A DNA stretch of 64,000 bases from an uncultured Christensenella sp. (GTDB lineage: Bacteria > Bacillota > Clostridia > Christensenellales > Borkfalkiaceae), in assembly GCA_910576655.1 (NCBI GenBank), contig CAJTJC010000007.1, positions 17,363 through 81,362 of the forward strand. Direction: 5' to 3'. Numbering within the stretch: the stretch's first letter is position 1; every line of letters begins with the position of its first letter. Below the pieces are notes generated by a model. That model did no database searches. It was given only the letters and a program-made list of their open reading frames with translations, and was not told the origin of the DNA. Positions 15,041 to 48,601 of the stretch are shown here, in pieces. A program made the position numbers and the translations under genes.

Positions 15041-15095
15041 CCGTTTCACTCCCGCTGGCAAGCGAAAATGAAACACTTCGCCAAACCATAACACC

Positions 15096-15124: not shown

Positions 15125-15169
15125 TGGGTTTATCAAAAATTTATTGTGAAATTAGCACAAGTTTTTCAC

Positions 15170-15766: not shown

Positions 15767-15771
15767 TTAAG

Positions 15772-17937: not shown

Positions 17938-17951
17938 TCCACTTCCTCCCT

Positions 17952-18563
17952 TTATGAAAGCTTATGATTTATACATCCGATTATTACGTCCAGCGCGACG
18001 GCGTTATGCCCGCCCTCGGGGACGATTATGTCCGCACGGCGTTTGTACGGTTCTACAAACTGCTCGTGCATGGGTTTTACCGTCGACTGATACTGATTGA
18101 CGACCGAGTCGAGACTTCTGCCCCTCTCGTTGACGTCCCTCATTATACGGCGCAGGATACGAACGTCCGCGTCCGTGTCGACGTAAATTTTTATATCGAA
18201 AAGGTTACAAAGCTTTGCGTTTTCAAACAACAGTATTCCCTCTACTATAATTATACGGTTGCTTTCGACGCGGGTTGTTTCTTCCTTTCGTAAATGATTT
18301 CTGTAATCGTACTGCGGCACCTCTACCGCGTTTCCCTTTTTAAGCTCTTTAATGTGCCTGATAAACAGGTCGGTTTCAAAGGCGTCGGGGTGGTCGTAGT
18401 TGCACTTCGCCCTTTCCTCGAACGGTATCGACGCGTCGCTTTTATAGTAGCTGTCCATGCCGAGCAGGGTCGAGCAGGAAGCGAATTCGTCGTAAATTTT
18501 TTCGGCAAGCGTCGTTTTACCGCTACCCGTTCCGCCGCAAATGCCTATAACCACTCTGTTCAT
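17952..18563 (-). CDS. udk: uridine kinase
   Basis: P-loop [13 protein letters not shown], plus [13 protein letters not shown] and IIIVEGIL, typical of Udk. Confidence 0.9.
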
Positions 18564-19144
18564 TACGAACGCTCCTTCGCCAGCCGTTCAAGCCAGCACT
18601 TCCTGCACATCGCCACGTAGCGGTCGTTTCCGCCTATACAGACCTGCGACCCCTCGGTAACCACTCTGCCGCGTCCGTCCAGCCGCGCGTTGACGGTAGC
18701 CTTAGCGCCGCAGGTGCAGACCGACTTTATTTCGGTTATAGACTGAGCTATTTCGAAAAGCCGCTTACTGCCGGGGAAAAGATGTGTGGTAAAATCGGTA
18801 CTAAGCCCGAAGCAAAGCACGGGAACGTCCTTCTTTATCACTATATCGGCAAGTTGGTCCACCTGCTCGGGGGTGAGAAACTGGCACTCGTCCACGATTA
18901 TCACGTTACAGTCGGGAAACTCGTTAACGTACTTGTCGTAGACGTTTTCGCTCTCTTTTACGGTCACCGCCTCGTTTTGCAGACCTATGCGCGATTTTAC
19001 TGTATCCGCGCCGTCGCGGTCGTCGATTGCGGGCTTCAAGAGCAGCACCTTCATATTGCGCTCTTCGTAATTGAATTTGGTTATCAGCGCCTGCGCCGTT
19101 TTCGAGCAGCCCATTGCCCCGAACTTGAAGTATAACTTTGCCAT
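18563..19144 (-). CDS. tdk: thymidine kinase
   Basis: GAMGCSKT P-loop, [10 protein letters not shown], and the C-terminal Cys cluster CTCGAKA...CRKCW typical of type II thymidine kinases. Confidence 0.9.
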
Positions 19145-19181
19145 ATAACCCTTTAACCTACGTATATTAATTTTCGTCTGT

Positions 19182-20483: not shown

Positions 20484-20502
20484 ATTTAATATTCCCCTTT
20501 TT

Positions 20503-31000: not shown

Positions 31001-31256
31001 CAGTGCGCTCCGTCCATACCGCGGTATCGGTAAGCGCGGGCAGCGGGTAAGTTTCCTTGCCGCCGTCGTTATCGGAGCAGTAGCGCTCCGCCGTTCCGCC
31101 GCTTTCAAGCGTGGGATTGTTTACGATAGTCCACGAGCCGTAGCTATGCTCGTGACCGTCGTCGTCACCGCACGCGGCAAACGCCGCGCCGCCCGCGCCG
31201 ATTGTCATAACCGACAGGACCGCCAACGCCGCTTTCGTAATATTGCGTTTTTTCAT
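25077..31256 (-). CDS. giant surface lipoprotein (2059 aa) with N-terminal repeat array, Listeria-Bacteroides (Flg_new) repeats and unassigned modules
   Basis: Lipobox FAAC-GDD. Five repeats of about 82 aa occupy aa 37-452. Six Flg_new-type units end in Y-A-[KR]-[WY], encoded at 28779-28799, 28524-28541, 27534-27551, 27312-27332, 26544-26564 and 26304-26324. AAGGAGT RBS. Confidence 0.85.
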   Translation of the reverse strand: MKKRNITKAALAVLSVMTIGAGGAAFAACGDDDGHEHSYGSWTIVNNPTLESGGTAERYCSDNDGGKETYPLPALTDTAVWTERTADYTAPTHTTEGSRTFSSEFGTVTITVPKTDDHSFGGWTITKQPTMTETGKAERTCSATDAYKETATVPALSDASVWTEKTDEAVAPTHTTDGKKVFTSVYGKVTLTLPADSDAHTYGSWTITEIPTLTEGGKAKRVCTDNDKHEDEIEIPALSDTTVWTENKGEYVPPTHTTAGKQVYTSEYGNVTVTLPANADAHNFGAWTFVEGERPTIENGGRIQRTCTDTSAHSENFTVYETVPALSDKSFWTENVKTRPTHLTDGVADYINRTYDVAVTEVAIPKIAHTFGGWTITKEPTSSATGEAVRVCTENGCSEDASATEKFALPALSDASFWTKGEEVKADYNHAGSITYTNAVYGSVTVITSPKLSTPYDNKTYSSVNVRLSDGKINLADTWNTAFLQVGDDGIGYGTGYPFRGKFVFEYVNPETGLVKITQYGYKTGSSGGDTDWGEAENYALRAADEYEETGIEYYAYVDKDTGVLVIQANGWTEVNIAVPSEAVVGKSAFEAATCDGDFVISYTRDTTPLNMFVDGDGVLFGVKFITLEKTEITAAECFTEASDSCTTFIVAGDEIIKGYAMNVTTEKWGVSDGLEGYYKLPDGKTVLIQGGGYIAVDSEDGEYKIISDNVVGVIITDKLTQNSVYYEFTLSGVGMSAEGGTCTQTAPKVTLTLDFNGYFPDNQTQNVTLEGQSKFVPIQLPPESAMTHQTMTFKGWYLDAACTIEVELIDGAFIPESDVTLYARWAEKVVIKLEGLLADDQSDETKNTLYLGEGDVISEYLTLYKKYDIDASTNTYFDGWYIVTDDGDIAVEEGATVGAGDSGATIIAKWVAVPAYVGSYSGANTYNKDNCSGGKTIKITVDGKISGKFTGEVLSYDEATQLMTVKIGNTTRYFVYDMLSGILVTGDNESKCSNPIDPDMDVFSSKQPTATLGLTQNKGYDVRIVDVENKVGTDTVLFYGNKIYADITVTDSFGNVLTAKTMKTAKTVVIRDNKNDTIILAVASKGDSFNADNNVKSLDEYFGTYIGTDGDISLDGTGSFIWGEKSGTYVTNGGSLGLFVVSEGVNREYWDVTLSEKAYTAVKPEATVTVTAVAPAGTTLPDEIAAFNVNININNFASLPDGASFNTEFVFNGYFKDAECTEKIEDTFILTENATIYAKYSNPASLTLVFNDGETQDETIRYSVGDSAVIDVPVYNKHAFVGWFLKDGSADGDWGDEWVSGSTVTENLTVYAKWTAAPLFNDIYAPIRIYGKDVSGVSGKDDRSSNAISVDPYGNAEATAYPFSGAVEIAYVENSTTKLTVKVGNSVYNAAIDPETGLIVMAASSGVSTKISEVWLLNNKETGSIYDKISSSYWNGGKNRVIEYAFDADTTYRIYIADGEVYFGVSFKDAATGGNDIDAKDCYKASALYVIGADGSTVIEQPSVTVTFEMNGNGANETITINKFFAQDLTAKNPTAEGFVFRGWYTDAEYKSKAADTYVTGENATLYAKWDAQAEVTFHVNAAGHTDTVYRGGFVNDAIGADNLPEIDYENDGMAFAGWFTKDGADGDWGAEVTGDTVISGVTLDVYAKWVTPAAMAGTYKGWNLYRAGENGTKIIASQSTTFTMGVAGEYAYSSTKGTLSDADISKTSGAINVGKYAYVDKSVGVIWYAYGSNATSVGNDTYLLFNPELVKEVVYSGLKTNPYTFWATVKFVDASKPDVNVFGYDNKIYTGVSWGSQTADKCHNTNHIVSASDGSVIAVLKDGNVVELDGYQGTYTFEGTTIVVDGGGTLTVGASTPDSYVISDGKLVFTHNNRMHVITVDKENGSFAYVQDGYAGEYTLPEGGTITLDGLGGVVGTTKTYVVSGTSISVYDGEAVTKYVIDVENKQFLGKSAFAGLTFNGTYKDSFGDSNNCTITFNDEATIVGKIDCGYYGAFEFIGELKGNELTMTLTKAIGSGVGQTVIMTVSGNKLTRTGGTYVNNAYITNDFSATCDGFSL
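29901..31148 (-). repeat. five tandem coding repeats of about 82 aa (unassigned domain)
   Basis: Each unit starts H-[ST]-[YF]-G-x-W-T and contains one Cys (R-x-C), P-A-L-[ST]-D and P-T-H-[TL]-T. Units span aa 37-117, 118-199, 200-281, 282-368 and 369-452. By eye the DNA copies are only about two-thirds identical. Confidence 0.85.
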
Positions 31257-31275: not shown

Positions 31276-34200
31276 TCAAACGCGCGTAAATTCGGTACCG
31301 ACCTTGAAGTAGCCTGCCGACGACGAGCTTACGTCTGTTGATGAACACTTGATAGCGTTCAGTCCCACCGCGTCGTTAAAGGTAAATACGAACTTGATTC
31401 CCTTTACCGTAACGGTTATTTTGTTACCTGTAACCGTAAAAGTGCCTTCCTCCCCGTCGCCGGTTACAAACAAGGGGTTGTATTTATCCATACCGTCCAC
31501 GCTGAAATCGTCGGAAACGGACTTTACCGTCACTTTTCCGCCCGTCTTAAACTCGAAAACGGTCGTCACGCTGTAAGATTGTTCTGCAAATTCCGGAAGA
31601 ACGGAATAGTCTGCGGAAAAAGATTTGCCTTCTAACAGCGTTTCATCTATTTTTATATTGCTGAGAGTATACGTTTTCTGTGCGGTACTGATTTTATAAA
31701 CCTTGACAACGTCGGTAAACACCACCGTTACGCTGCTGCCGTAAACTACGTAATCGCCCGTCTTTGCCCCGACGGTTGCTTTTCCAAAACCGTCGAGAAC
31801 CAAATCGAATTCGAGACTGCACGTATACGTTCCTCTGAACGCGTCCGACCGAACGAGTTTGCCCATCTCGGAGATATTACCCCATTCGATAATTTTGACA
31901 AACCATTCGCTGCTGCCGTCGGTAAATTTCAGAAGCGCGCCGAGAGTATCGAAGTTGCCTTCAACGGTAACTATTTTTCCGAGTGCGGAATACGCGTCGG
32001 ATAGGAACCATACGCTTCTGCCGCCCGCGGTTACCGAGCGGATAAAGATATCCGAACTCGCCGCCGTCTTTACGGTGCCCGTAGTAAGACAGTCGGTGAA
32101 CATAAGCGCGCCGCGCGCAGTCACCCTGATAATTCCGTCCTCTATAAGCTCGCCCGTAATTGTAATTGCGCCCTTCTCGCACTGCGCCGTAGCAGTGAAC
32201 GAGGTTGCGCCCAGCCTTGCGCTGCCGCTGAAGCTTATTCCGCCGAATACGCCGGAAATTCTGCCGAATTCGTCTACGTTCAGCGTCGCTCCGCTGACCG
32301 CGCTCTGGGAATATCTGCCGAGCAGCCTGTTGCCGGTGTATAAGCTGTCAAGCACCTGCACCGCGTAGTACGAGGACTTTACGCTGCCGTTAACGGGGAT
32401 ATTGATAATTAATTGATAGAAGCCCGCTTTGCCGAAGCTTACGCGCGATACGTCTACGTATTTGGTCTTGGTTCCCGCGATTACGCCCTTCATCTGCTCG
32501 ACGGAAAGCGCGCCGTCCTTGGTGACGATTGAAATACCGTCGAACAGCTCTTTATCGCCGACGCCCTTGCCGAGCACGAGGTTGCCCACCGTGACGATTG
32601 CGCCGTCGTAAATTTGAGCGCTGACGAACTGCTTTCCGACCAAATCTATACCCGTAATTTCGCGTACGGTAAGCACGTTTTTATAATCCGAGAAAAGGAA
32701 TTTAGCCGTCGTGCCGTATGAGAAATCGGGCGCGGGGTTGAGATAGGTAATTTCGACATTCGCGCCGTTGCGCTTGTACGAAAACGCCGTGGTCAGATAC
32801 CTGCTTGAAGTATCGAAGTTGACTTCGCCCGTGCCGAAGCCGTCGAAGAAGAAGCAAACCGTGCCGAACTCGTACCTGCCGAACAAATCGTCGGGCGCGT
32901 CAAGCGTGAAGGTTTTGGTTGCCTTATCCAGTCGGAACCTGTAAGAATAGGGAACGCTCATATCGTAGACGAGCCAGGTGTTGTCGTCGTAGGCGGGTCC
33001 GCCGTTTTTAATGGGAACCTGTTCGTTGGGCGTAAGGTCAAACACCTTTTTGTTGTCGACCGTAAGCGAAATCCTGTCGTTCGCGGCAACGGCGAATATC
33101 GCCGAATTGCCGTCTACGGTGCCCCTGAAAGCCATTCCCGCATATTCCGAAACGGCTGCGGTATTTTTGTTAATCATAGCCTTCGAGCCGCTCGTCATCG
33201 TAAAGCCGTACGTCTCGCCGCCGAAGCCGACCGAGGAAACGAAGCCCTCTTTATTTTCGAAGTCGGGCGCAAAGCGGGCAAAGCCGAACACCTCGTCCCC
33301 GTAATAGACGTTGGAAGCCAGCTTGGAAATAAACGTAGTTTTCATTCCGTACCAGCTTTCCGTGCCGTCGGCTGCTTTAAGCTTGAAGAAGTCAAGCGTG
33401 TAAGAGCCTGCTCCGACGACGGTATTGCCAAGCGAGTTGGTCTGCAACACGTTGCAGCCCGTCGTGCTCGAATTGACCTCGATACTGCCCTCTACCGTCC
33501 ACTTATCGCTATGGAAATAGACTAACGGTCTGCGGCGGTCGGTGTACGACATATGCAGCGAATTGTCGGGGTCGAGAGTTATAATTCCGTCGTCGTAACG
33601 GAAAATGTAGTCGTTTGTATACAGCTTTACGCTGAAAGTTCTGTCGTCGATAATAGAGACGATTTCCATTCTGTCGGAGCCGACGAACATTTCGCCGTCG
33701 GTATCGATAGTCAGGTTTTTAAGCGTTGCCGCGTAGGTCGAGGAATACGTCGGGTCGACCGCATACTGGTCCCATTCGTAATCGCCGTCGTCTTCCTCTT
33801 CCTCGTATGGCTCTATTTCGCTGAGCAGAGTTTTATAAGTGCCCGCCATAGCCGCGTCCAGCACTACCGCCTTGGACTGAGCCGTTACGCCCTTGTACGT
33901 CGCGGTAACGAAGTACACGCCCGCGTTAAACAGGTCAATCTTGCCGCTTACCATATCGTCGGTAACCGTCACGCTTTCGCCGTTTTCCTCTATCGTGAAC
34001 AGCTCGCGCGCGTAAACGGTCGTGCCGCTGAAAATTACGCGCTCTCTGCCCGTAACGGTCACGCCGTTATCTACACGCAGTGCGTACGCCACCCTTACGG
34101 GGTCGGCGTCGGGTCCGAAAACGTAAACGTCGATTTCGACGGTCTGCTCCGCAACCGAAGTAAAATCTACGGGCGGGGAAACTATCTGCGCATAGCAGGC

Positions 34201-35664
34201 GGTTATGTCCAATTTGTCCTTGTCGTCAATAAGCTTGCGCCTTATGCCGTCTATCGTTACGCTCAAATTGTCGTACACGTTATACTTTACCGTACCGGCG
34301 GGGAGCAACAAATTCTGTTGCAGCACGTTTAAGGTGTATTCAACTTTTTTGTCAACCACCTCGTAGGTGATTTCCTTTTCGAAATAGTCGAAGTTGACGC
34401 CGCTCAGCCCGAGGGGCTTAGTATTGTAGGGTACCTTGATTTTGACGGTAAACTCGCCCTCTTTGCTAAAATCCACACCGCTTAAATCGAAGTACGAGCG
34501 CGGTAAATCGGTAAACCTTATGCCGTTTATTATTACGGTGAAATCCGCGCCGAAATCGTAGCTTTCCGCGTCGGTGCCGACCTCTGCGATAACGGTATCG
34601 GAGGTCGCGTAGCCGATAATAACGCCCAGCTTAATGGTGACGGTAGCAACCGCCGTTCTTCCGCCGTAGTTAAGGGTGATTGCGTTGTCGCCCTCTTTGG
34701 AATAGTCGACCGTACCCGTTACCATATCGTCGGTGACCTCGATAACGCGGTTACCGTCCTTTACGGTGAAAAGCGTTTTCAAATCGATATTCTCGCCGTT
34801 GGGATAAGTAACGATATTGTTTGCCGTAATGCTGATTTGCGTCTGCCCGACGACCTTTATTTCCGCGGTCGAGGTAGCGCCGATGCCGTTCTTCTCGAAC
34901 GCAATCGTTACGGGATAGGTCTGCCCCTCCTCGGGCGCGTCGAGCGCCGAAGCATCGATATAGCTTAAAAGCACCCTCTCCGCCTCTCCGCCGACGTAAA
35001 TCGAGAAAAGCGTAGTATAGTCGAAATCGCGCAGCTCGTCTGCGGTAAGCTCCAAAACGCCGTAGGAATTTATTATTTCTATCGCGTTGGCGTCCACGAC
35101 AGTAACCTCCACGGTTTCGGAAACGCTGAAAAAAGTCACCGTGTAGGTATAGCTGCCCGCCTCCGCCGCCACGTTGCTTGTCACCATTTTATCGGTGACG
35201 GCAGTCCGCTTTCCGTCCACGGTCAGTGTGAACAGGCTTTTAAAGTCGTACGAGTCGACCTCGGTCGATTTTATTTTTACGGAATTTTTGGAAACGGTCA
35301 AGGTACATTCGGAAGCGATAACCTTTACCGTTATGCTTGCCGACTTCCCCTTGTAATTACATACTGCGACGTATTCGCCCGCCCTTGCCTCGACAGCCGA
35401 AGCGTCAATATAGTCGCTCGACGGTACGGAAGCGTTGTTGTCGCTTATGCGGAAATATCTTGCGAAGTTGAAACCCTCAACCTCGTAATCCTTTATGCTT
35501 ACCGATTCCTGCGTTACCGCCACGCTTATAAAGTCCGAAGGCGGATTAACGATAGGCGGTTTGTCGTCGTCAGGAGGCACGGTTTCGTCGCAGGCGGAAC
35601 AGCCCGCAAAGTTTGCCGCCGTAGCCAGCGCAATGAGCGCGGCTGCAATTTTGAATTTTTTCAT
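31276..35664 (-). CDS. giant surface lipoprotein (1462 aa) with seven Ig-like repeats and an unassigned C-terminal half
   Basis: Lipobox FAGC-SAC. Aa 46-602 form roughly 70-95 aa repeats with the recurring pattern D-x-x-x-L-F-T...V-T-D-D-M-V-x-G...G-x-Y-x-V-T. The rest has no motif I can name. Confidence 0.85.
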   Translation of the reverse strand: MKKFKIAAALIALATAANFAGCSACDETVPPDDDKPPIVNPPSDFISVAVTQESVSIKDYEVEGFNFARYFRISDNNASVPSSDYIDASAVEARAGEYVAVCNYKGKSASITVKVIASECTLTVSKNSVKIKSTEVDSYDFKSLFTLTVDGKRTAVTDKMVTSNVAAEAGSYTYTVTFFSVSETVEVTVVDANAIEIINSYGVLELTADELRDFDYTTLFSIYVGGEAERVLLSYIDASALDAPEEGQTYPVTIAFEKNGIGATSTAEIKVVGQTQISITANNIVTYPNGENIDLKTLFTVKDGNRVIEVTDDMVTGTVDYSKEGDNAITLNYGGRTAVATVTIKLGVIIGYATSDTVIAEVGTDAESYDFGADFTVIINGIRFTDLPRSYFDLSGVDFSKEGEFTVKIKVPYNTKPLGLSGVNFDYFEKEITYEVVDKKVEYTLNVLQQNLLLPAGTVKYNVYDNLSVTIDGIRRKLIDDKDKLDITACYAQIVSPPVDFTSVAEQTVEIDVYVFGPDADPVRVAYALRVDNGVTVTGRERVIFSGTTVYARELFTIEENGESVTVTDDMVSGKIDLFNAGVYFVTATYKGVTAQSKAVVLDAAMAGTYKTLLSEIEPYEEEEDDGDYEWDQYAVDPTYSSTYAATLKNLTIDTDGEMFVGSDRMEIVSIIDDRTFSVKLYTNDYIFRYDDGIITLDPDNSLHMSYTDRRRPLVYFHSDKWTVEGSIEVNSSTTGCNVLQTNSLGNTVVGAGSYTLDFFKLKAADGTESWYGMKTTFISKLASNVYYGDEVFGFARFAPDFENKEGFVSSVGFGGETYGFTMTSGSKAMINKNTAAVSEYAGMAFRGTVDGNSAIFAVAANDRISLTVDNKKVFDLTPNEQVPIKNGGPAYDDNTWLVYDMSVPYSYRFRLDKATKTFTLDAPDDLFGRYEFGTVCFFFDGFGTGEVNFDTSSRYLTTAFSYKRNGANVEITYLNPAPDFSYGTTAKFLFSDYKNVLTVREITGIDLVGKQFVSAQIYDGAIVTVGNLVLGKGVGDKELFDGISIVTKDGALSVEQMKGVIAGTKTKYVDVSRVSFGKAGFYQLIINIPVNGSVKSSYYAVQVLDSLYTGNRLLGRYSQSAVSGATLNVDEFGRISGVFGGISFSGSARLGATSFTATAQCEKGAITITGELIEDGIIRVTARGALMFTDCLTTGTVKTAASSDIFIRSVTAGGRSVWFLSDAYSALGKIVTVEGNFDTLGALLKFTDGSSEWFVKIIEWGNISEMGKLVRSDAFRGTYTCSLEFDLVLDGFGKATVGAKTGDYVVYGSSVTVVFTDVVKVYKISTAQKTYTLSNIKIDETLLEGKSFSADYSVLPEFAEQSYSVTTVFEFKTGGKVTVKSVSDDFSVDGMDKYNPLFVTGDGEEGTFTVTGNKITVTVKGIKFVFTFNDAVGLNAIKCSSTDVSSSSAGYFKVGTEFTRV
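33859..35529 (-). repeat. array of seven Ig-like (Big_3-like) coding repeats
   Basis: Read directly from the translated protein. Example units end ...GEYVAVCNYKGKSASITVKV, ...GSYTYTVTFFSVSETVEVTV, ...GDNAITLNYGGRTAVATVTI and ...GVYFVTATYKGVTAQSKAVV. Confidence 0.7.
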
Positions 35665-35728: not shown

Positions 35729-38119
35729 TCAGCCCGTGACGTTTTCGCTGTTAAGCGTCCACAAGCCTACGGGAAGAATGTCTACAAAGAAGAACCTTGT
35801 ACGGTTGTTGTGAACTTTTATCATTATTTTACCTTTACCGTTTTCGCTGATATACGTCGTATATCTGTCGCCCCAGTAGGTTTCTCCGGTGTTGGTAGCG
35901 GAAATAGCGTAGCCGTCCTTCGCAAGCTCTTCGGTGAGCTTTGCAATGCACGCATCGTGCTGAGCGGTCGTTATCTTGCCGTTTTCGTCGCTCTCTTCGA
36001 TTGACAGGTTGAAGGAAACGTAGTCGAAATATTTAATTCCGCCGCCGGTCGCGGTGTTGTCCTCTTCGTCCCACTCGAAGAACAGGTCAGTCATGGAATC
36101 GCCGAACGCCTTAAAGAACGCCGTGGGCGAGGGCAGAGTGTTCGCCTTGTCGCCGTAGATGTTGTTCAGCAGGGTGCCGCCGTCAATTTCTACGGGTATG
36201 CTATTCGTGGTGTGCGTAGGATAGTAGTATCTTACGTTGAACTGACTCCAGTTTTCGCGGAGCACGCGCGCCTCGTATCCCTCGAACGTGTCCTCGGGAA
36301 GTACGGTGGTGCCGATTTTGGAATACGTGGTTTTGATAACGCCCGTATAGGTGCCCAAAGTTATGTCGTAGGGGAATTCGGTGGAAACCACTTCGCCCGT
36401 TTCAAGCACGCTTATTTTGAACGTACCGTAGGTAGAGCCCTTTGCGCTCTTTGCCCAGGTATGCGCCGAAACCTGCATAGCAAGGTCTCTGGTTATAGCG
36501 GGCTCGCGCAGGGTGAAGTTGTATACGCCTATCCATTCGCCGCCTATCTGCACGTCGGACATTCCGGCGTACTGGAAGATATTTGCCGAGAAGTCGAATT
36601 TGGGCATATTGTCGAAGACGTTGCCCTCGAACTGCTGCTTGCCCTGCAATGCGCCGAGGTCGTTGCTGTATTCGAAGAAGTCGTATTTGTCTGCGGACAG
36701 CTGCTTATAGCCGCTGTAATTCGTCCAGTAAAGGTTGTCGTCCATACCCGAGGTATACTTGCCGGTACGCGCAAGCAGGATAGCGTCCTGCGTTACCTGA
36801 CCGACGAGACCGACGGTACCCGTAGAAGACGTCGAATTGGAAGCCGAGGTTCTGCTCTTTTTAAGCGAATAATCGGCGTATTCCCCTTCGTCTATAGGGG
36901 GAGCGGAAACGGTCGTTTCTACTGCGCGGAAGGTGTAGTTGGTTGCGTCGCCCATTTTTTCGAGCGCCCTTTCGAGGTATTCCGCATTTCTCGGCGCCTC
37001 GTAAGGGGTCGGCGTGGGAACCTCGGTTGCGCCTACGCCAGTAAAGTCGGCGGTAAGCGTGGTATAGGACATTGCCGTCGCGTCCTTCGACGTGCCCTCT
37101 TCCGACGCGCCGTAATAGGTTACCGTCGTGGAAGCTATCATTTGGGTGATTTTGCCGTCCGCAACCTTAAGTCCTATCGTTTCCAGCGTATCCTGACCCT
37201 CGAGCATGGGAGTAAGCGAAACGGAAAGATAAGCCCTGAGATAGAGGTCGTCCTCGGACGAGTTGTCGAACTTGTAGAGGTAAACCTCGTTTTCGGCGTC
37301 GTACTCCCACTGGTTTACTATATCCGTGCCGAGCTGCGCAAGGTGATTCCAGAGGTGCTGGTTTTCCCATACCGACGCAACGCTGTTGTAGTCGGTTACG
37401 GCCTTCTGCGCGACCTCGTTGTCCTTGTTTATGTAAACCTGGTCGAATGTGTGCTCGTCGGAGTTCGCAATAACGTTCTCCGAGCGGCGGTAGTTGTTTA
37501 TATCCTTATCGGTGGCGCCTTTGGCGTTCCATTCGCCGTACCAGGCGCCGTCCGCCATCTTTACCGTGAAGTCGTACGTCTTGGTTACGTCGTTGTTGTC
37601 GTTGTTGAAGTCGTCGTAAATATCCGAAACCTCGCCGCTGACGGTAATTTGCGGGTTACCGAGCGCGGTGAACATTTCCGTCTTTAACTCGCCGACCTGT
37701 CCTTCGACAATCTGCGCCTTAATCGTAATGGTAACCGAGTCCTTTTTAAGCGAGGTCACGTTCGAGGTTGCGGTCAGCTTTACCACCTTGTCGACCGAAG
37801 TGGTTACTCCGTTTTTAAGCGAAAGCACGCCGTCCTTGAACTCCACCAAAGACGCGCCGTTGCCCTCAACCGACCAGGTGACGGACTTATCCTCAAGCCC
37901 GTCTACGGCGACGGAGGCCGTAACCGTTTCGTTGGTGCCGCAGTGGATTTCCGTTTTGTCAACGGTAATTTTGACCGTTACGTCTTCGAGAACGATAGGG
38001 GGCTTTTCCTCTCCGTTATCCTCGCTGCCGCCGCAGCCGACGAACGCGAAAGTCGAAAAGCTCATTGCAGCGCCTATCGTCAAGGATGCCGCTGTTTTAG
38101 CCAAATTCTTGATTTTCAT
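35729..38119 (-). CDS. surface lipoprotein (796 aa) with N-terminal Big_2-like domain, remainder unassigned
   Basis: Lipobox FVGC-GGS. The Big_2-like segment is VTASVAVDGLEDKSVTWSVEGNGASLVEFKDGVLSL...KLTATS. AAGGAGA RBS. Confidence 0.8.
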   Translation of the reverse strand: MKIKNLAKTAASLTIGAAMSFSTFAFVGCGGSEDNGEEKPPIVLEDVTVKITVDKTEIHCGTNETVTASVAVDGLEDKSVTWSVEGNGASLVEFKDGVLSLKNGVTTSVDKVVKLTATSNVTSLKKDSVTITIKAQIVEGQVGELKTEMFTALGNPQITVSGEVSDIYDDFNNDNNDVTKTYDFTVKMADGAWYGEWNAKGATDKDINNYRRSENVIANSDEHTFDQVYINKDNEVAQKAVTDYNSVASVWENQHLWNHLAQLGTDIVNQWEYDAENEVYLYKFDNSSEDDLYLRAYLSVSLTPMLEGQDTLETIGLKVADGKITQMIASTTVTYYGASEEGTSKDATAMSYTTLTADFTGVGATEVPTPTPYEAPRNAEYLERALEKMGDATNYTFRAVETTVSAPPIDEGEYADYSLKKSRTSASNSTSSTGTVGLVGQVTQDAILLARTGKYTSGMDDNLYWTNYSGYKQLSADKYDFFEYSNDLGALQGKQQFEGNVFDNMPKFDFSANIFQYAGMSDVQIGGEWIGVYNFTLREPAITRDLAMQVSAHTWAKSAKGSTYGTFKISVLETGEVVSTEFPYDITLGTYTGVIKTTYSKIGTTVLPEDTFEGYEARVLRENWSQFNVRYYYPTHTTNSIPVEIDGGTLLNNIYGDKANTLPSPTAFFKAFGDSMTDLFFEWDEEDNTATGGGIKYFDYVSFNLSIEESDENGKITTAQHDACIAKLTEELAKDGYAISATNTGETYWGDRYTTYISENGKGKIMIKVHNNRTRFFFVDILPVGLWTLNSENVTG

Positions 38120-38140: not shown

Positions 38141-40483
38141 TTAAACTGTCTTCCAGACGTAAATCCAGAAATCCAGAGAGCTGTCGTAGGGCATTGCCGA
38201 AACGTCTCCCTTTACGTATTCGCCGTAGGCGTTCTTTACAAATCCGTTTTCTACGAGGAATTCCTGCGCCGATTTAATCGAGCTGTTGATGGTTCTGTCC
38301 GCGTCGAGCGCAACGTCGTAGTAAAGCACGACCGTTTCGACGCTGTAACTTATTCCGCCCGGTTGGCGGTAGGTTGCAAGTCCGAACCCGTAGGTGTCGC
38401 CGAGAAGGTCGCCGAAGAAGGGCAAATCGTTTACCTTTTCCGCCGAGCCGAACATACCGATAAAGAATTCGAGCGCGTTAACTTCGCCGCTGTCGCCGCC
38501 GTCGGTCTCGTCGATTACGGTCAGGTCAGCCCAGCTTGCGGGCGGGACTCTGGGAACGTAGCCGTCGAACGATTTGAACGAGTCGGGCATCGAAGCCGAA
38601 TTAAAGTCCGAATAGTAAATTCTCACTTCGCCGTACATATCGCCGAGGAAGTAGAAGAAACCCGCTTCGAGAATTTTTCCGTCCCGCACCACGACGTAAG
38701 GCGTGTAGTCCGCAAGCATTTCGTAACGCATTGCAAACAGTCCGTACAGCGGCGCGTCGTTTCCTACGCCGTAATAGAGAGTGCTTGCCACCGTGCACAT
38801 GGTTTCGTCAACGTAGTAAATCGTGGCGTCCTTTCCGTCGACCGTAGCCGCCTGGAAGGAGGTGAATATTTCCGAAGCAAACGCAAACGAAGCCTTTGCT
38901 TTATCCATATCGCCCTTGAACGCGCGCGCCGCCTCGTATACGCCCTTGTCGGCGTTGTAGTTGTAGCTGTTGTAGGTGTTTGCGTCCAGCTTATGATAGC
39001 CGTACTGCGCGTTGGGGCGCGCCACCGCTATCTGATTTCCGCCCGAGGAAATTATATCGTACGGCTCGAAATAATAATCGCCGTCGATTACCGTTTCCAC
39101 GTAGCCGCCTATCGTATAGCCCGAAGCCATGTGCGACGACATTCTGAAATCGAGCGTGTAATTTTCAAGGCTGCGCATATTTTCAATCGCCTCGTCAAGC
39201 GCGTCGTGGTCGATAAAGCCGCCGTCCGTCGTCTTGGGGTTGTGCTCGAACTTGGTTATCAGGGGAACCTCTACGTTGTCCGCGCCGCAGTTGATATAGC
39301 TGTAAAGCCGCTGAATTGCTTTGTAGCCGGGAACCACAGAGAAGCTGGGCTTGCTTTCCGCGAATATGCCGAGAAGCTCGCCCCCCTCTATAATAAGACC
39401 CAGGCTGCTCGCCTCGAATTCGTAGGGATTTGCGGAGGCAACCATTTTCTGCGCGAGCGTCGCGTCATTACCCTTGTAGTAGTAACGCCAGTCGTCCTCG
39501 TCGAATTCGAAGTCGTCCGCCGTAACCTTTGCAAAGTTGTTGTACAGCCCCGAGTCGAGCCAGCTTACGGGCTTGCCCGCGTCGTCGGTCATGGGGAAGT
39601 ACTGTTCGTCGTTCATAAGGCTGAGCGCGACCTGCTGGGCGACGCCGCCTTCGTTTTTATAGTGAATGTCGGCAACGTAGTTGGTCGAATTGTCGACGTA
39701 ACGCGCGTGCCATCTGTCGCCGTTCATCTGGGTGGAAATGCCCGAAACCTGAACGGTTTCCACGTATTTGTCGAAAAGCTCGAAGGTGCGCAGCTCTATG
39801 TCCATATAGCCCTCGAAGCCGATATAGTTATCGCTGACCGAAGAAAGCATTTCGTCGGTGAGCACGGGCTGGCACGCAACGCAGATTATTATTTCCGCGT
39901 ACTTCTCGTCGTTGTCGGTGCTGGTAGCCCTGACCGTAACGTCGCGGTCCTCGGTAACCGTCTTTGCGGTAAACTTACCGTCGCCGTCTATCGAGCCGTA
40001 TTCGCCGCCCTCGGTAACCGACCAGACTACGTTTGAATTAGTGCGGCCATCGGGGAACTTAACCGTTGCCGTAAACTTAGTGCTTTTGCCGCTGCCGACA
40101 AGCTGATTACCCTTTATCGAAACGGTAATTCCTTCGAGGTCGGGGTCTACGGGCGGCGGGGGCGTCCCCTTGCCCGTAAAGGTCTGCACCTCGCTGGGCG
40201 CCGAGGACTTATAGCCGCTTGCCGACGCTATGACCGAATAAGTGAAATCGTTTACCACCGAGCCGACGGTGTAGCTGGTGCCGTCGCATCTGTAATTGTA
40301 ACCGTTGAGCACCACTACGTAATATTCGGCGTTTTCAACCGCGTCCCAGGTAATTTCGCCGTCGTCGCTGACGGTGACGTTCTGCGGCGTCGCAAGCTGA
40401 GGCTTTTCCTCGCCGCAGCCCGCGAACGTCATTGCAAGCACGACTATCACGAGGGCGCAAATAAATTTTTTAAATATCTTCAT
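38141..40483 (-). CDS. surface lipoprotein (780 aa) with Fn3-like and Big_2-like domains, remainder unassigned; probable paralog of the 796 aa protein
   Basis: Lipobox FAGC-GEE. Fn3-like PQNVTVSDDGEITWDAVENAEYYVV. Big_2-like FTATVKFPDGRTNSNVVWSVTEGGEYGSIDGDGKFTA. Shared downstream motifs include LDEAIENMRSLENYT, against LERALEKMGDATNYT in the neighbour. Confidence 0.8.
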   Translation of the reverse strand: MKIFKKFICALVIVVLAMTFAGCGEEKPQLATPQNVTVSDDGEITWDAVENAEYYVVVLNGYNYRCDGTSYTVGSVVNDFTYSVIASASGYKSSAPSEVQTFTGKGTPPPPVDPDLEGITVSIKGNQLVGSGKSTKFTATVKFPDGRTNSNVVWSVTEGGEYGSIDGDGKFTAKTVTEDRDVTVRATSTDNDEKYAEIIICVACQPVLTDEMLSSVSDNYIGFEGYMDIELRTFELFDKYVETVQVSGISTQMNGDRWHARYVDNSTNYVADIHYKNEGGVAQQVALSLMNDEQYFPMTDDAGKPVSWLDSGLYNNFAKVTADDFEFDEDDWRYYYKGNDATLAQKMVASANPYEFEASSLGLIIEGGELLGIFAESKPSFSVVPGYKAIQRLYSYINCGADNVEVPLITKFEHNPKTTDGGFIDHDALDEAIENMRSLENYTLDFRMSSHMASGYTIGGYVETVIDGDYYFEPYDIISSGGNQIAVARPNAQYGYHKLDANTYNSYNYNADKGVYEAARAFKGDMDKAKASFAFASEIFTSFQAATVDGKDATIYYVDETMCTVASTLYYGVGNDAPLYGLFAMRYEMLADYTPYVVVRDGKILEAGFFYFLGDMYGEVRIYYSDFNSASMPDSFKSFDGYVPRVPPASWADLTVIDETDGGDSGEVNALEFFIGMFGSAEKVNDLPFFGDLLGDTYGFGLATYRQPGGISYSVETVVLYYDVALDADRTINSSIKSAQEFLVENGFVKNAYGEYVKGDVSAMPYDSSLDFWIYVWKTV

Positions 40484-40493
40484 TTTATCTCCT

Positions 40494-41045
40494 TCAATAT
40501 CCGTACGTTACCGTAACGCTTACCGTGCGCGACGACGAATTTACGTACGAATATTCCGCTTTGGTCATGTTTCCGTTTTCGAACCCGACGCTGAGCGTCA
40601 TATCCGACGACGCGGAAACCTGCCGCGAAAGCGCTTCGGTTATTTTGTCCTTGGGCACGGTGCAGCTAAGCGCGCCGTCCGCTATTTCGTATGAAGCGGT
40701 AAGTCCGCCCGAAAGCTTTAAGCCGACTATCGTTTTGCCCGTCACGTTTTCAACCGAAACCGTAGTCGAGGTCGTCACCGTTTCGAAGTTTTCCGAAAGC
40801 ACCGTTTTACTGTCCGATACCGACGCCGTGCGCGTCGCCACGTCTACCTCGATACGGCGTTCAAGCGTGTAGACCGTAACGCCTCCGTCGGTTAAAGTGA
40901 CCTGCGCGACAACGGTAGTCGCCCTGTCCGCAGAGGAAACCATTTTATCGAGGTATTCCGAAACCTCGTCTCCGCACGCGGATAAGCCGAATGCCGCCGC
41001 GCCGAGGGCGCAAAGCGAAATCGCCGCTAATTTTTTAAATTTCAT
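40494..41045 (-). CDS. small lipoprotein (183 aa), function unknown
   Basis: Lipobox LSAC-GDE. Ser/Thr/Val-rich and beta-type in composition. AGGAGGG RBS. Confidence 0.7.
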   Translation of the reverse strand: MKFKKLAAISLCALGAAAFGLSACGDEVSEYLDKMVSSADRATTVVAQVTLTDGGVTVYTLERRIEVDVATRTASVSDSKTVLSENFETVTTSTTVSVENVTGKTIVGLKLSGGLTASYEIADGALSCTVPKDKITEALSRQVSASSDMTLSVGFENGNMTKAEYSYVNSSSRTVSVTVTYGY

Positions 41046-41059: not shown

Positions 41060-44000
41060 TTACAGTCCCATGCGCTTTTTAAGCGCGTACGCCGCCGCAG
41101 CCACTGCCGATACGGTGGCGACGGCCGCAGCTCCGAACGCAAACGCCGTAAACGCCGCGTTGGCCGCCTCGTCGCCCTCCGCCTCCGTCTTAGCGCAGTA
41201 TTCGTTATACTGCTCGACGATAGATTCGAAGTTTTTGTATTCCTGAGTTTCGCGCATGAGTATGCGCTCTTCCACCGTCAGCGCGTTTATTTCGCCGTTG
41301 ATTTCCTTCAAAAGCTCTATTTGCGTAACGTCAAACTTATCCGAAAGAGTGGCAAGCTTTGCAAGCAGGTTTTTGAAATCTCTGCCTGCGGTAGCCACCT
41401 GCAATTCGGTAAGCGCGTTCTTCGCGTCCCTTACCGCCTTGATAAGCGCGTCGGCGTCCGCCTGCGAATAGCCGTAATCGGTCAGGCTCTGCGTCATGGA
41501 GTTGAGCGCCGTAACCGCGTTGTTTATCAGCCTTTCGTCCGAGAGCGTCACCTTGCCGAGCGCGGCGACTTTATCCGCGTACTGCAGGAACGACACGGTT
41601 GCGTCGTCCATTGCCACGTAATCCGTTCTGCCGGCATCCTCGGCCTTGCCGAAGCAAGCCTCGTACACCGCGCCGCCGTAGCCGTAAGCGCCGTTGGCGG
41701 GTAAGGTCATTTTGACGGGCTTGAACGAGCCTGCAAGTCCCTTAAAGGTGAAGTAGTAAAGCTCTAATCCGAACAGTCCGAACTGGTTGTGCAGCAAATC
41801 GTAGCCGGGTGCGTCCTCGGCAAGCTTTGCTTCGGGGAAGTAGTCCTTCTCGCTATCTGCCTTGATAGGATAATACTGCGTTTCGAGTACGGGAGCCGAC
41901 GAGGAATTGAACACCACCTCGGCAAGCTTGGAATAGCCGTTGAATGCGTAGTTACCTATCGCCCTGAGAGAATCGGGAAGTATTATTTTGGTTATATACG
42001 GGTTTCTGTTGCCTGCGTAAATATCTACGCGCGCAACCCCTTCGGGAACGGTGAGCGTCGAAGCGTACAGCCCGCCGGGGACCGCCTTCAATTCCGCCTT
42101 GCCCGAGGGCATATTGACGTAAAGCACGCCGCCGTTTAAGAAAGCGTAATCATTTATTTTGCCGTCGGTTTTTTTGTCCTCGCCGAACGAGAATATCGCA
42201 AGCCGCGAGCAGCCGAGGAACGCCATAGGTCCGACGTATTCGATTGCGCTACCGAAATTGAAGTCGGTAAGGTACGCGTTTTTGTAGAACGCCGCCTGAC
42301 CTATTCTTTTAAGGTTGGGCGCGGTCAGCGACGCTACCATCGTTTTGCTGAACGCGTTGTCGCCTATTTCCGTAAGCGCGTTTGCGGTTATTTTGCCCGA
42401 AAGCATGGTGTTGGAGAACGCGCCCGCGCCAAGCTTTTCAGCCGAGGATAAATCAGCGGTGCCGAAATACGTCGCGCCGTAGAACGCGTTGTCGCCGATA
42501 AGCTTTACCGCGCCGAGATTTATAGAAGTAAGGTTTTCGCAGCCTCTGAACGCGTAGGTGCCGATTTCGACGACCGTTGCGGGAAGCTTGACGGTTTGAA
42601 GATTTACGCAAAGCGCAAAGGTGAAGCCGTCAATCTTCGTAACCGTTGCGGGCAGAGTTATTTCGGAAAGTCCCGCGTTGCCCATGAACGCGCCCATTCC
42701 TATCTCTTCCACGGAATCGAGCGCAATTTTGCTGAACGTAGGCGCGCTGCCCTTTTCGGACTGACGCGCAAACGCGCCTTCGCCTATCGTCCTGACGCTC
42801 ATTGCGTTTACCACGCTTGCAAGCGCGGAGCAGTCCGCGAACGCGTACGGGTCGACCTCGGTAACGCCGTCTAAATTGACGCTGCGAAGCGATGTGCAGC
42901 CGAAGAAGGTCTCCGATTCGATTACCCCGTCGGTCTTACTCGCATCTATTTCTTCGAGCGACGTATCGTTTGCGAAGCACGCCGTACCGAAATGAACGCC
43001 GCCGCCCGCAGGCATATTTACCGTAGTAAGCATCTTGCAGTTCTGGAACGCGCCCATTCCGAAAACGGAATTTTCGCCGAGCGTCAGGCTGACGATTTGC
43101 GACTGGAAGAACGCTCCCTCGCCGTAAACCGCTCCCTCGCCGAGCACGACGGTTTTAAGCCCCGTGTTCGCAAACGCGTAGTTGCCCACGCTTGCGAATT
43201 TGTCGAGGTTGACAACCTCGGTAAGCTCCGTACAGGCGTTGAAGGCTCTTTCGCCGATATACGCCTTTTTCGTTACCTCGGCAAACGCCACTCTTTGAAG
43301 CGCGCCGCACTGGTTGAATGCGAAATCGCCTATCGCTATATCGGCATTTTCGAACGTGACCGAGCCGATTATGCAGCCCGCGAACGCGCCCGAAGCTATT
43401 TCTTCGTAGCCTGCGCCGATAACGAGGTCGCCGAAGTCCTTGCCCTGAGCCGCGAGTATTATGCTTTTGCCGTCCTTGGATATAAGCAGCGAGCCGCCGT
43501 CTACCGCGTAGTTGGCGTTGTCCGCGCCGACGGTGAAATTAGTCAGCTGCGTTTCGCCGAACGCCGAAGCGCCTATCGAAGCGAGCACGGTGTTGCTTTG
43601 CAGCGCGAGCGTCGTCAGCGGCGAGCTTACGAACGCGTATTCGCCTATCGCAACCTCGCAGTCGGGAAGCGTAAACTGCTTGATTCCCGTTGCGTAGAAC
43701 GCCTGCGAGCCTATTTTCTGCAACCCGCCGCCGAAACGCACCGTTTCGAGCAGAGGCGATTCGCAGAACGCGCCCGTGTCTATCGAAATGAGGCTGTTGT
43801 GCAGCGTCACTCTTTTAAGCTTAGAGCTGCGCGCAAACGCGTACGCAGGTATACTTATTTTTTCGTAAACGTCTATTTCTTCAACCGCGGTGTTTACGAA
43901 CATTTCGCGGCAGAGCTTGGTGTTTTCGTTGAGAATTATGGTAGCAAGCGCAAGACAGTCTTTAAACGTCCTGCCGACCTTGCTGCCGCTTTTCAGCGTT

Positions 44001-47000
44001 TCTTCGGCTGCGTTTCTGAGGTGCGAGAGGTCTACCGCGGTCAGCGTTTCGCAGCCCTCGAAGCCGCTTGCGCCAATCGAGTAGCATTTACTCAGGTCGG
44101 CCTCTTTCAGCGATTTGCAGCCCTGGAACGCGTGCGCGCCGATAACCTCTACGTTGCCGAGATTTATATCGGTGAGCTTTTCGTCCTTATAGAACGCGTA
44201 CTCGCGTACGAACTTAACCGACGAGGGAAGCTGTACAGACCTCAGTCCCGAGCAGTTGTAGAACGCGTATTTCTGCACGTCCTCCACTCCTGCGGGAATG
44301 ATTACGCTGGTAACAGAGGTGTTCATCGAAGGAATTTTATTCGAGTCGAAATCGTCGTCCTCGAGCTCTACCGTCCTGTCGGTATCGTAAAGACAGAACG
44401 CGTACGAGCCTATGTACAAAATGCCCTCGTCGTCGGGAATGACGACCTCGCCGCCCAGTCCCTTATACGCAATAAGCGTTCTGTTTTCTATTACGAATTC
44501 GCTTTTTACGACTATTCTTATTCTCGCCTTTATGTTAGAGCCCTTTACGTTCAGCGTTACCTGAGCCGTGCCCTCTCTCAGCGCGGTCACGGTGCCGTCC
44601 TGCTCGACCTTTACGACCTTGTCGTTCGAAGTCGTGTACTCGAACTCGCGGCTGTCCTCTACGTACCAGGGCTTTACCGCATAGCTGAGCTTTATCTTTT
44701 CGCCGGGGTAGAAGCTGACGGTTCCGTCTTTCAGCGCGGAAACGTAAACCCTGTCGCCCGTGTCCTGTATTTCGCTGGTCTGAGCCGCGCGCGAATACGC
44801 GAACAGCGTATCAAAGTAAATGAAGTCTACGCTTTCAAGCTCGGCGTCGGCGGCGTCCCTTGCCGCATTGCGCCGCGCTGCGCGGGGCTTTACGTTTAAG
44901 GTGACGGTCGCCTGCTTGCCGTCCATTTTTTCGGTGACTGTTATCTGGGTCTTGCCCTCTTTGAGGCAGACTGCCTCGCCGTTTTTGAATTGCTTCGTCT
45001 TGGGGTCGGCTTTTACTACCGAGGTATTGTAAGCCGTCCATTCGAGGTGTTTGAGATAGTCCTTGTCGCTGTCGAGCGTTGCGTCGGTCGAATAGAGGTA
45101 TTCCGTCAAATCGACCACGTCGCCTACGTAGGCGTTGATTACGCTGAGCGGTCTGCCGCTCTCTTTACCGTTCGAGGTAAAGCGGAAGTCGCCGCGCGTG
45201 CCGGGAAGCTGACAGAGATATATGTTGGAATTGAGCGCGTAGTCGTCGATTGAGAACGCAAGCGCGCTGCCTATTAACGCGTCGGAATATATCGCGTCGA
45301 GATATTCGGTTACCTCGAAGCGCACTTTGTTGTCCGCGCCCCTCTCGCTGTATACGGGAATGGGGTTGTCGGTCAAAAGTGCGTAGCTCGAACTCGAGGT
45401 GAACGCAACGGGGCTTATCGACTGCACGTACTGGTTATCGTAAATGGTCAGCGTTACGTAGAACCTGTCTTTTTTGAGGGTCTTGTCGTAAACCTTTTCG
45501 TACGTGGCTTCCTTGATAATGGGCGCCTCGTTGTCGCAGTAGAAGTCGAACGAGAACGAGTTGCGCACGTTTGTTGAAAGTCCGCCGTCCGTACCGTAAT
45601 CGAGCTTGCCCTGCATTTTGAACTCGTACTGTCTGTTGTTTACCAGCCCCAACTTCAACGTGCTTATTTTAAGGTAGTCCGCGTAAGGCATAGGCGAGCC
45701 GCCGAGCGAATGAGCCTTATTCGCGTTGTAGTCGGTATGCGAATAGACGACCTCGCCCGAAACCTTGTCTACTATAGTGAAGTTCATTTCCTTGGCGCTT
45801 CGCAGCAGTCCCGCGTAGACCGAAGAAATTCCGTCTATCGTGCCGAGTATATCCGATACGGCGATATGGTCCTCGGTGGCGGGTATCGCATCGTAGGTCA
45901 TCGTGTCTATATCGTACAGATAAGTTCCGAGGGGTATTATATAATTATAGAAATACGAGCCGTACGGCGTGGTTGCGAAGTAGTCCGCCTTTAATTTGTC
46001 CTCTTCGTCTATACTGCCGTCGTGAGCCTGCGATTCCACCTCGTAATAGGTCTTGTCGAACATGGGCGCTTCCGTCCAGTCGCCGAAGAACGCGAGATAG
46101 GGCGCGTTGAGGCTGATTTCCGTTCCCTCGTCCTTTGCCGTAAGCCTTACGAATCCTTCTACGTACATTCCGTAGGGGAACGACGAGGTGATATATTTTT
46201 TGTCCTCGCCGGACATTTTGTAAACTATTTTAAGCTTTGCCGTTTCGCCGCCCTGCAAAGTCAGGGTCGTGCCCGAAAGCGTTGCGCCGCCCGAAATAAG
46301 GCTGACCGAGGTTTCGCCCCCGAGCATATAGGCCTTTTCCGCAACGTGGTTTTTGTCCGAGGTGGAAACGCTTTCGGTCATAGCGTCCAGCCCGACCTCG
46401 TAGCTGAGCGTGTCGCCGCTGAGATTTTTAACGCCGAATTCAAGCGTGTAAACGCCCTTCTTCTCGGCGTCGTCGCCAAGCTCGAACTTGGGTCTGTCCT
46501 GACCGTCGACGGTGATAATCGCCTTGGTGTTGACCGCGTTGTACAGGCTTGCAAGTCCCGCGCCCTGTTTTCTGGGCGAATAGGGGTTGCCCTCCTCGTT
46601 CTTGATTATCGTCGCGCTTGACATCAGAAGCTGATTGCAGAGCCGCGAATATTCCACTGCCGACAAATCGGGGTAGGTATCCTTTAAGTACTGTCTGATA
46701 AGCACTACTATTCCGCAGAGGTTGGGCGATGCCATCGAGGTACCAGAAAGCTCGTCGTAGCCGCCTCCGGGAACGGCAGATTTAATGCTGCCGCCGTGCG
46801 CGGTAATTTCGGGCTTTATGCCGAGCGACGGGGTCGGACCCCAGCTTGAAAAGTCGCTCATAAACGGTCCCGCTTCCTGCTCTAAGCCGATTTGCAGAGT
46901 ACCCTTCGCCTTTTCGGCAAGCCTGACGCCGTCGTCCTTGGATATGGAAATCGTCGGGATATGGTCGCTCTTGCCCATAGACATAAGAATTTCGCCGTCT

Positions 47001-48601: not shown

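Follow-up and report, generated by a model that had tools for sequence, protein, structure and literature searches.

A predicted cell-envelope S8 protease fused to a leucine-rich repeat array and encoded with an Opp importer in uncultured gut bacteria

In Lactococcus lactis the cell-envelope proteinase (CEP) PrtP is composed of a pre-pro region, an S8 domain carrying a PA insert, Fn-like A and B domains, a helical H region, a W region and an anchor, and the oligopeptides that it releases are handed over to the Opp transporter (PMC7783315). Here we describe a gene of an uncultured Christensenella sp. whose product is an S8 protease of the cell-envelope type, fused to an array of LRR_5 leucine-rich repeats (LRRs) and to a transmembrane (TM) anchor. 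The gene is located on the minus strand of a 64,000-nucleotide stretch (positions 17,363 to 81,362 of contig CAJTJC010000007.1, assembly GCA_910576655.1), which is referred to below as the window and in which all positions are counted (Table 1). By analogy with PrtP, we think that the protein is a CEP variant supplying peptides to the Opp importer encoded in the same gene cluster, and we assign to this reading a probability of roughly 0.55.

The catalytic part of the protein was recognised by Pfam as Peptidase_S8 (PF00082, residues 212-682, E 2e-38; 132.6 bits, cut-off 21.8), into which a PA domain is inserted (484-561, E 2e-15). When the active-site residues were checked one by one, D221 was found in AILDSG, H293 in HGTHVAG and S622 in GTSMASP, and N394 in the position of the oxyanion asparagine; none of the four varies in an alignment of 70 family sequences. 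The PA insert and the intact Asp221/His293/Ser622 triad, both read from the letters in a first-pass annotation of this DNA, were thus upheld on re-inspection, the triad in canonical motifs. Among solved structures the closest relatives in sequence are the C5a peptidases and SpyCEP (residues 189-876, E 1e-66 to 1e-59). An AlphaFold model of residues 24-1200 (overall predicted local distance difference test, pLDDT, 70.6) was aligned by Foldseek with ScpB/ScpA over ~1050 columns (E about 1e-45), therefore residues ~190-1160 appear to represent the whole C5a-peptidase ectodomain. Within this region the Pfam match to fn3_5 (residues 713-836) was weak and below the cut-off here, and is recorded for most homologs. 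The best NCBIfam match was NF040553 (SGO_0316/SGO_0317; residues 122-856, E 2e-76), with 257.8 bits against a cut-off of 1400. The likeness to PrtP/ScpA-type proteases proposed in the first-pass annotation is borne out by this S8+PA+Fn3 core, whose best match both by sequence and by fold is the group of ScpA/ScpB and SpyCEP. These observations are best explained by an enzyme that is predicted to be active, exposed on the surface and of the ScpA/PrtP structural type.

The fusion is not restricted to the window. A search of 5.8 billion proteins yielded at least 120 full-length homologs (2425-2571 aa, 52-76% identical) encoded on many independent contigs; in the Pfam scan S8, PA and LRR_5 were present in all of them and Big_2 in nearly all. 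The sole source name among the homologs listed was 'leucine-rich repeat protein [Clostridia bacterium]'. In a collection containing one genome per species, relatives of the protease were encoded by 180 stretches. The closest of these originate from mouse-gut metagenome-assembled genomes (MAGs), L002, which is the locus of MAG iMGMC-975 (98%), and L001 (69%), and the remaining ones from gut MAGs of human, goat, sheep, rabbit, deer and reindeer, some probably from chicken. When residues 191-1160 were compared with representatives of clusters formed at 50% identity, most of the best 150 clusters were proteins of 2250-3155 aa in which the match usually began near target residue 190, the shorter entries looking like fragments. 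Among the most distant proteins checked, four (36-41% identity) likewise contain S8 together with PA and LRR_5, and judged from their sequences the distant S8+LRR_5 relatives occupy at least 150 such clusters. The earlier question whether this architecture occurs elsewhere can therefore be answered with yes.

Taking these numbers together, the explanation that mis-assembly had brought the S8 and LRR halves together, or that the gene is a pseudogene, was rejected as having almost no chance of being correct: the same Pfam architecture is shared by the at least 120 full-length homologs from independent assemblies and by relatives in the 180 one-per-species stretches, the region of the S8-LRR junction is well conserved among the homologs, there is no break in composition, and nothing was found that speaks for an artefact. 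The word 'chimera' in the first-pass annotation is unjustified in the sense of an assembly product, since the fusion is kept in more than 100 independent assemblies. In the literature searched, no description of an S8+LRR_5 envelope protease was found, and the two Pfam accessions occurred together in one paper only, on Tritrichomonas, as separate families. The family is widespread and uncharacterised; its core is already known and all its parts are familiar, and what is new is their combination. Inside the LRR-coding region a 635-aa open reading frame (ORF) runs on the opposite strand (42992-44899, plus), and several shorter ones lie elsewhere inside the gene; these antisense ORFs are probably a by-product of repeat and codon composition, and nothing suggests that they are genes.

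Between the protease core and the LRRs, one Big_2 domain (1294-1354) was detected in the scan of the whole protein and a second one appeared when residues 1161-1380 were scanned alone (two stretches, E 1e-13), in agreement with the two Big_2-like units of the first-pass annotation. LRR_5 (PF13306) scored 403.8 bits against a cut-off of 27.7 (E 1e-122, seven stretches), and by hand ~32 repeat units of 22-23 residues each were counted from ~1385 to ~2235. The resulting length of ~850 aa is close to the 865 aa that had been estimated for this BspA-type array. The claim that it is one of the longest such arrays did not hold, as the distant relative P0264 has 14 LRR_5 stretches (726 bits), twice as many. 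In 41 close homologs the length of the LRR region is fixed at 799-868 aa and its identity is ~50%, that is, it is as conserved as the other domains. A fixed length and conservation of this degree point to a set geometry or to a partner that is itself conserved; a role as structural stalk, or binding of a conserved ligand, would be easier to reconcile with them than a variable adhesin.

The amino-terminal sequence MFKKIVAVVMTAMMAVSFTAC is a standard lipoprotein signal with a basic n-region (MFKK), an h-region (IVAVVMTAMMAVS) and the lipobox FTAC. The putative lipidation site is Cys21 in SFTAC, as previously read; all 120 homologs have a lipobox-like motif, and the cysteine column is at least 90% conserved in the family alignment. 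A lipobox is found in nearly every exported protein of the window, including all seven neighbouring cluster proteins, therefore it looks like the default export signal of the lineage rather than a device specific to the enzyme. Across 6085-21996 and 25077-57279, a lipobox cysteine was found in ~13 of the ~14 ORFs that have an export signal at the N-terminus, and the ORF at 15772-17937 is the only one of the ~14 exported ORFs that resembles a signal-peptidase-I substrate.

In the AlphaFold model, a beta-alpha-beta-beta-alpha-beta unit (residues 76-173, pLDDT 82-92) lies directly N-terminal of the catalytic domain, from which it is separated by a disordered linker (model residues 153-177, pLDDT <50), and the motif DTYNRPQ, possibly an autoprocessing or inhibitory segment, is conserved at its end. 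Of the I9-like propeptide named in the first-pass annotation, the fold is matched by the prediction, whereas the sequence matches stay below the cut-off (see below). In ScpA/ScpB and SpyCEP an N-terminal pro-region is removed. Because of the I9-like fold, the disordered linker that follows the pro-domain and the conserved DTYNRPQ, and by analogy with I9-bearing subtilases, we consider removal of the pro-domain probable and its retention in lipidated form possible, with a distinctly smaller likelihood.

The carboxy end was modelled separately (residues 2130-2513, pLDDT 90.2). The last LRRs are followed by a cap, by a helical bundle (2333-2450) and by a single helix (2453-2510) continuous with the TM segment; over the C-terminal 180 residues the model is helical, with a pLDDT of ~95. 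In the Foldseek search with this model only the LRR part was matched, to LRR_5 proteins, and the bundle showed no match to a solved fold. The long helix joins the bundle to the TM segment, therefore the LRR array is predicted by the model to begin near the membrane, with the protease head at its far end. At the threshold used, the C-terminal TM helix was found in 115 of the 120 homologs, and a fifth protein fell just below the threshold (for the other four, see below). Within the last 120 residues no LPXTG-like motif precedes the helix, and no such motif is conserved among the 120 homologs; the exported ORFs of the window that are 100 aa or longer also have none. The protease was matched by no other NCBIfam model of a sorting signal. 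The single LPXTG-motif match in the window was discarded, as it belongs to a cytosolic isocitrate dehydrogenase homolog. The hydrophobic helix (2486-2504) with the KKRMGL tail, here YALKKRMGL, and the lack of a sortase motif are as had been described, and the view that the protein carries anchors at both ends is confirmed as far as predicted features go. Provided that both signals function in the predicted way, a zymogen tethered at both ends would result; by analogy with processed subtilases, the mature enzyme would be anchored by its C-terminus alone.

The strongest functional clue came from the surroundings of the gene, the conserved upstream oppABCDF, on which the first-pass annotation had been silent. 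The protease lies within a cluster of 13 genes (~32 kb, 25077-57279, minus strand). The cluster genes are spaced by 10-64 nt or overlap, a strong promoter-like site was seen only upstream of the first gene, g390, and no convincing minus-strand terminator was found between opp and the protease; judged from the sequence, these features suggest that the cluster is operon-like and forms a unit. Synteny was examined in 79 loci fetched from other species, 62 of which had enough upstream and 66 enough downstream DNA. In 60 of the 62 informative loci the block g390-oppABCDF-s85 was directly upstream, with gene order and strand unchanged; on the other side d780 and d796 were present in 62 of 66 loci and d1462 in 61 of 66.

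It is this near-constant adjoining of protease and importer on which the peptide-supply reading is based. The following course of events can be envisaged. Exported by means of its lipoprotein signal, the protein would as a zymogen be fixed in the membrane through a lipid at its N-terminus and a stop-transfer helix at its C-terminus. The I9-like pro-domain would act as folding chaperone and inhibitor and then, most likely, be cut off autocatalytically, after which the C-terminal helix alone would tether the mature enzyme. The LRR solenoid, together with the Ig/Fn3 domains, would serve as a stalk that holds the catalytic head off the membrane, and may also bind substrate. The protease, whose substrate range is presumed here to comprise extracellular proteins, would cut these to oligopeptides, and the co-encoded Opp ATP-binding cassette transporter would import them. 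In comparison with PrtP, a module of Big_2, ~32 LRR_5 repeats, helical bundle and TM helix would replace the B/H/W plus LPXTG module.

Several observations weigh against parts of this proposal. The match of the pro-region to Pfam I9 (PF05922) is below threshold and covers only the C-terminal half (15.2 bits against 21.2, E 0.036), and the family profile of the pro-region matches the cucumisin propeptide (4yn3_B) weakly (E 0.04). Four of the 120 homologs have no C-terminal TM helix (P0079, P0084, P0095 and P0092), three of them ending ahead of the TM segment, in ...NKFNKGGK, and one having a long acidic tail; the C-terminal anchor is therefore not obligatory, and secretion or attachment by the N-terminal lipid alone must suffice in these variants. 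No PrtM/PrsA-like (peptidyl-prolyl isomerase) maturase was recognised among the 12 neighbouring proteins of the cluster. Two loci, L024 and L076, have no Opp block upstream, L076 carrying it downstream. Finally, the nearest solved relatives, ScpA and SpyCEP, are not nutritional enzymes but virulence proteases of narrow specificity, and BspA-type LRRs are usually discussed as adhesins.

The last two points lead to the explanation that the protein is an adhesin-protease directed against the host or against neighbouring cells, in which the LRRs bind a ligand and S8 makes a specific cut, as in the 'capture coupled to cleavage' of the first-pass annotation; the target could be an immune or mucus factor, as C5a is for ScpA and chemokines are for SpyCEP. 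Besides the closeness to ScpA/ScpB and SpyCEP, the matches of LRR_5 to BspA-type proteins, to TpLRR and to part of the HupY/LrrG adhesin model are in keeping with it, and an LRR region of fixed length that is as conserved as the other domains (50% identity) is compatible with one conserved ligand. A host-specific target is, however, unlikely for a family found in gut MAGs of human, mouse, goat, sheep, rabbit, deer, reindeer and probably chicken; no ligand is known, and the Opp linkage is left unexplained, so that we regard this explanation as improbable. A sheddase or maturase that releases or processes d780, d796, d1462, d2059 and g390, with Opp a mere neighbour, would likewise leave the near-universal Opp linkage without explanation, as well as the need for an 850-aa LRR stalk; moreover, no processing sites are known and the neighbours have no recognisable pro-regions. 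This alternative, which appears doubtful to us, draws on the five or six large lipoproteins conserved beside the protease, on a ~185-aa membrane-anchored ORF, present behind the protease in 43 of 66 loci, that could encode a regulator or inhibitor, and on the precedent of the lipidated subtilases NalP and SphB1, which cleave surface proteins (PMC9977779).

Much less probable than either of these is the maturation of exported pro-peptides into signals that are re-imported by Opp. The adjacency of protease and Opp is all that points to it; neither a small secreted pro-peptide gene nor a Rap/RNPP-type receptor was seen in the cluster, and a 2513-aa anchored enzyme with an LRR stalk seems excessive for such a task. 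Subtilisin-type proteases of Bacillus are known to mature Phr peptides. The peptide-supply reading can, on the other hand, be extended: the cluster as a whole may be a Gram-positive 'protein utilisation locus', built on a logic like that of polysaccharide utilisation loci, and the main nitrogen-acquisition organ of genome-reduced gut Bacillota. In this tentative and rather unlikely extension, the lipoproteins g390, d780, d796, d1462 and d2059 would capture protein substrates, only engagement of substrate by the LRR solenoid of fixed length would free from inhibition a protease held in an arch between the lipidated pro-domain and the C-terminal helix, and an Opp system with the oversized 928-aa OppA-like protein would import the products; strong selection would have retained the cluster in lineages of 28-59% guanine plus cytosine (GC), or it would have reached them by horizontal spread.

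Table 1. Positions of the protease gene, its predicted domains and the other members of the gene cluster in the window
Feature	Position (nt)	Strand	Basis or remark
Protease gene, whole	41060..48601	minus	ATG start, 2513 aa + stop; S8-LRR_5-TM fusion
Signal peptide, residues 1-21, lipobox F-T-A-C, Cys21	48539..48601	minus	motif
Low-confidence tether, then conserved short helix, residues 22-72	48386..48538	minus	AlphaFold pLDDT 29-51; conserved Q/S/I/K/A positions
I9-like pro-domain, residues 73-175, ends in DTYNRPQ	48077..48385	minus	AlphaFold pLDDT 82-92; weak sequence matches
Disordered linker, residues 176-200, candidate autoprocessing region	48002..48076	minus	AlphaFold pLDDT <50; cleavage inferred
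Subtilase catalytic domain, residues 201-700	46502..48001	minus	Pfam, alignments
D221 codon	47939-47941	minus	
H293 codon	47723-47725	minus	
N394 codon (oxyanion Asn)	47420-47422	minus	
PA domain inserted in S8, residues 484-561	46919..47152	minus	Pfam E 2.3e-15
S622 codon	46736-46738	minus	
Fn3-like beta-sandwich domains, residues 701-1160	45122..46501	minus	Foldseek to 8bty/7bj3/3eif, ScpA/ScpB ectodomain
Two Big_2 Ig-like units, residues 1161-1375	44477..45121	minus	Pfam
~32 BspA-type LRR_5 repeats, residues 1385-2235	41897..44449	minus	Pfam, PDB matches, hand count
LRR C-terminal cap and helical bundle, residues 2236-2452	41246..41896	minus	AlphaFold pLDDT ~95
One long helix into TM segment, residues 2453-2513, tail YALKKRMGL	41063..41245	minus	AlphaFold, hydrophobicity
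TM segment, residues 2486-2504	41090-41146	minus	
Promoter-like site upstream of g390	57313-57342	minus	
g390, 390-aa lipoprotein, first gene of cluster	56107..57279	minus	
OppA-like lipoprotein, 928 aa	53354-56140	minus	
OppB	52299-53348	minus	
OppC	51125-52288	minus	
OppD	49933-51114	minus	
OppF	48833-50074	minus	
s85, 85-aa membrane protein between oppF and protease	48616..48873	minus	
d183 lipoprotein	40494-41045	minus	
d780 lipoprotein	38141-40483	minus	
d796 lipoprotein	35729-38119	minus	
d1462 lipoprotein	31276-35664	minus	
d2059 lipoprotein	25077-31256	minus	

Some properties of the neighbouring cluster genes should be mentioned. The OppA-like protein is 928 aa long by the listed ORF, its real start probably being the methionine of MNKKF ~45 codons further in. 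It is ~350 aa longer than usual OppA proteins, SBP_bac_5 matches residues 442-689 only, and it is conserved with the cluster. The s85 protein has a Lys-rich N-terminus, the motif DDG[HR]T[IV]Y[ND]M (DDGxTxYxM) and a C-terminal TM segment, and was matched by tblastn in 68 of the 79 loci. Searches of Pfam and NCBIfam found nothing in g390, s85, d183, d780 and d796, and Big_3 and Flg_new repeats only in d1462 and d2059. The d780 and d796 proteins are distant paralogs (21% identity over ~680 aa). When a d780 profile built from 32 sequences was compared with PDB and Pfam, only an N-terminal Ig/Big_2 domain was recognised, and the remaining ~580-aa conserved domain of the two proteins had no match in Pfam, NCBIfam or PDB sequences. 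Directly after the protease a membrane-anchored ORF of ~183-190 aa, often with a lipobox, occurs in the loci counted above and is absent from the rest; its size and position are conserved and its sequence is very divergent. Its product could be an inhibitor, a chaperone or a regulator.

Divergent from the cluster promoter, genes for a homocitrate/citramalate-synthase-like (HMGL-like) enzyme, an aconitase and an isocitrate/isopropylmalate dehydrogenase lie at 57606-62060 on the plus strand. The intergenic region between them and the cluster (57280-57605) is very rich in AT, and promoter-like sites were seen in it on either strand. The CodY box regulates proteolytic systems in lactic acid bacteria. 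Its consensus AATTTTCWGAAAATT had four matches at three mismatches in the search made here, no more than expected by chance and none in the promoter region. An Rfam scan of the whole window revealed no riboswitch, T-box or other RNA.

The carrier loci (L001-L079) range from 28 to 59% in GC content. Their S8 regions are 58-72% identical to that of the window protein in all but the two closest relatives, and among the loci, those that carry the labels Mollicutes, Bacilli or Anaeroplasma do not diverge further than the Clostridia- or Christensenella-labelled ones. An attempt to split the carriers into Clostridia and Bacilli/Mollicutes by clustering of the S8 region failed, as the label groups do not separate. 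Submitter labels proved unreliable in some cases, with loci labelled Bacteroides, Acidiphilium or Butyrivibrio. The mixing of labels may thus be due either to unreliable submitter taxonomy or to horizontal movement of the cluster. Many carriers are labelled as uncultured Christensenellales-like organisms, Clostridia or Mollicutes/Bacilli from animal and human guts.

Many auxotrophies have been reported for genome-reduced specialists of the gut that bear such labels, the labels being the only ground on which the carriers were compared with them (PMC12306168, PMC13155120). If the peptide-supply reading is true, the conserved 32-kb cluster would explain the amino-acid supply of such organisms, and it would be a target for metaproteomics and for the design of cultivation media in which protein or peptides are supplied. 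A near-universal Opp-protease-lipoprotein cluster across gut lineages of 28-59% GC thus offers a testable lead on how they feed. For the enzyme type itself, the sequences suggest that anchoring of the ScpA/PrtP scaffold does not require sortase, that this scaffold can be combined with a long LRR solenoid of fixed length, and that a lipidated pro-domain may coexist with a C-terminal membrane anchor in a protein of Gram-positive type.

Parts of this arrangement are found in several known systems. Mycosins resemble the protein in being subtilases tethered by a single C-terminal TM helix, but they are small and are devoid of PA, Fn3 and LRR domains; the mycosin model TIGR03921 scored 53.3 bits against a cut-off of 278.75, and ESX genes are absent from the window. 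NalP of Neisseria and SphB1 of Bordetella combine an S8 domain with an N-terminal lipid and a C-terminal domain embedded in the membrane, and are an earlier example of a subtilase attached by both of its ends (PMC9977779). They differ in being Gram-negative proteins without PA, Fn3 or LRR, with an outer-membrane beta-barrel at the C-terminus, which is helical here; the autotransporter model EprS (NF051851) gave 27 bits against a cut-off of 1700. The BspA-type LRR_5 proteins (4fs7, 4gt6, 4h09, TpLRR 6mlx, HupY/LrrG) share the type of repeat, but are stand-alone LRR proteins or adhesins without a protease domain. The serine peptidases of NF040553 (SGO_0316/SGO_0317) have an LPXTG signal, which the protein described here does not have, and its C-terminal 1650 residues are unrelated to them.

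ScpA/ScpB and SpyCEP (3eif, 1xf1, 8bty, 7bj3, 5xya, 6vjb) share the S8 domain, the inserted PA domain and the Fn3-like domains over residues ~190-1160. In contrast to the window protein, they have an ordinary signal peptide, an LPXTG/sortase wall anchor and no LRR, and are virulence proteases without a link to opp. The overall plan also resembles that of the lactococcal and lactobacillal PrtP (lactocepin), which has a pre-pro region, S8+PA, an Fn-like stalk and a helical H region near the anchor and whose function is coupled to Opp (PMC7783315). PrtP differs in having the B and W regions and an LPXTG anchor and in needing the lipoprotein PrtM, whereas the protein of the window has Big_2 units, an LRR_5 array, a helical bundle and a TM helix, and is encoded in the same operon-like cluster as opp.

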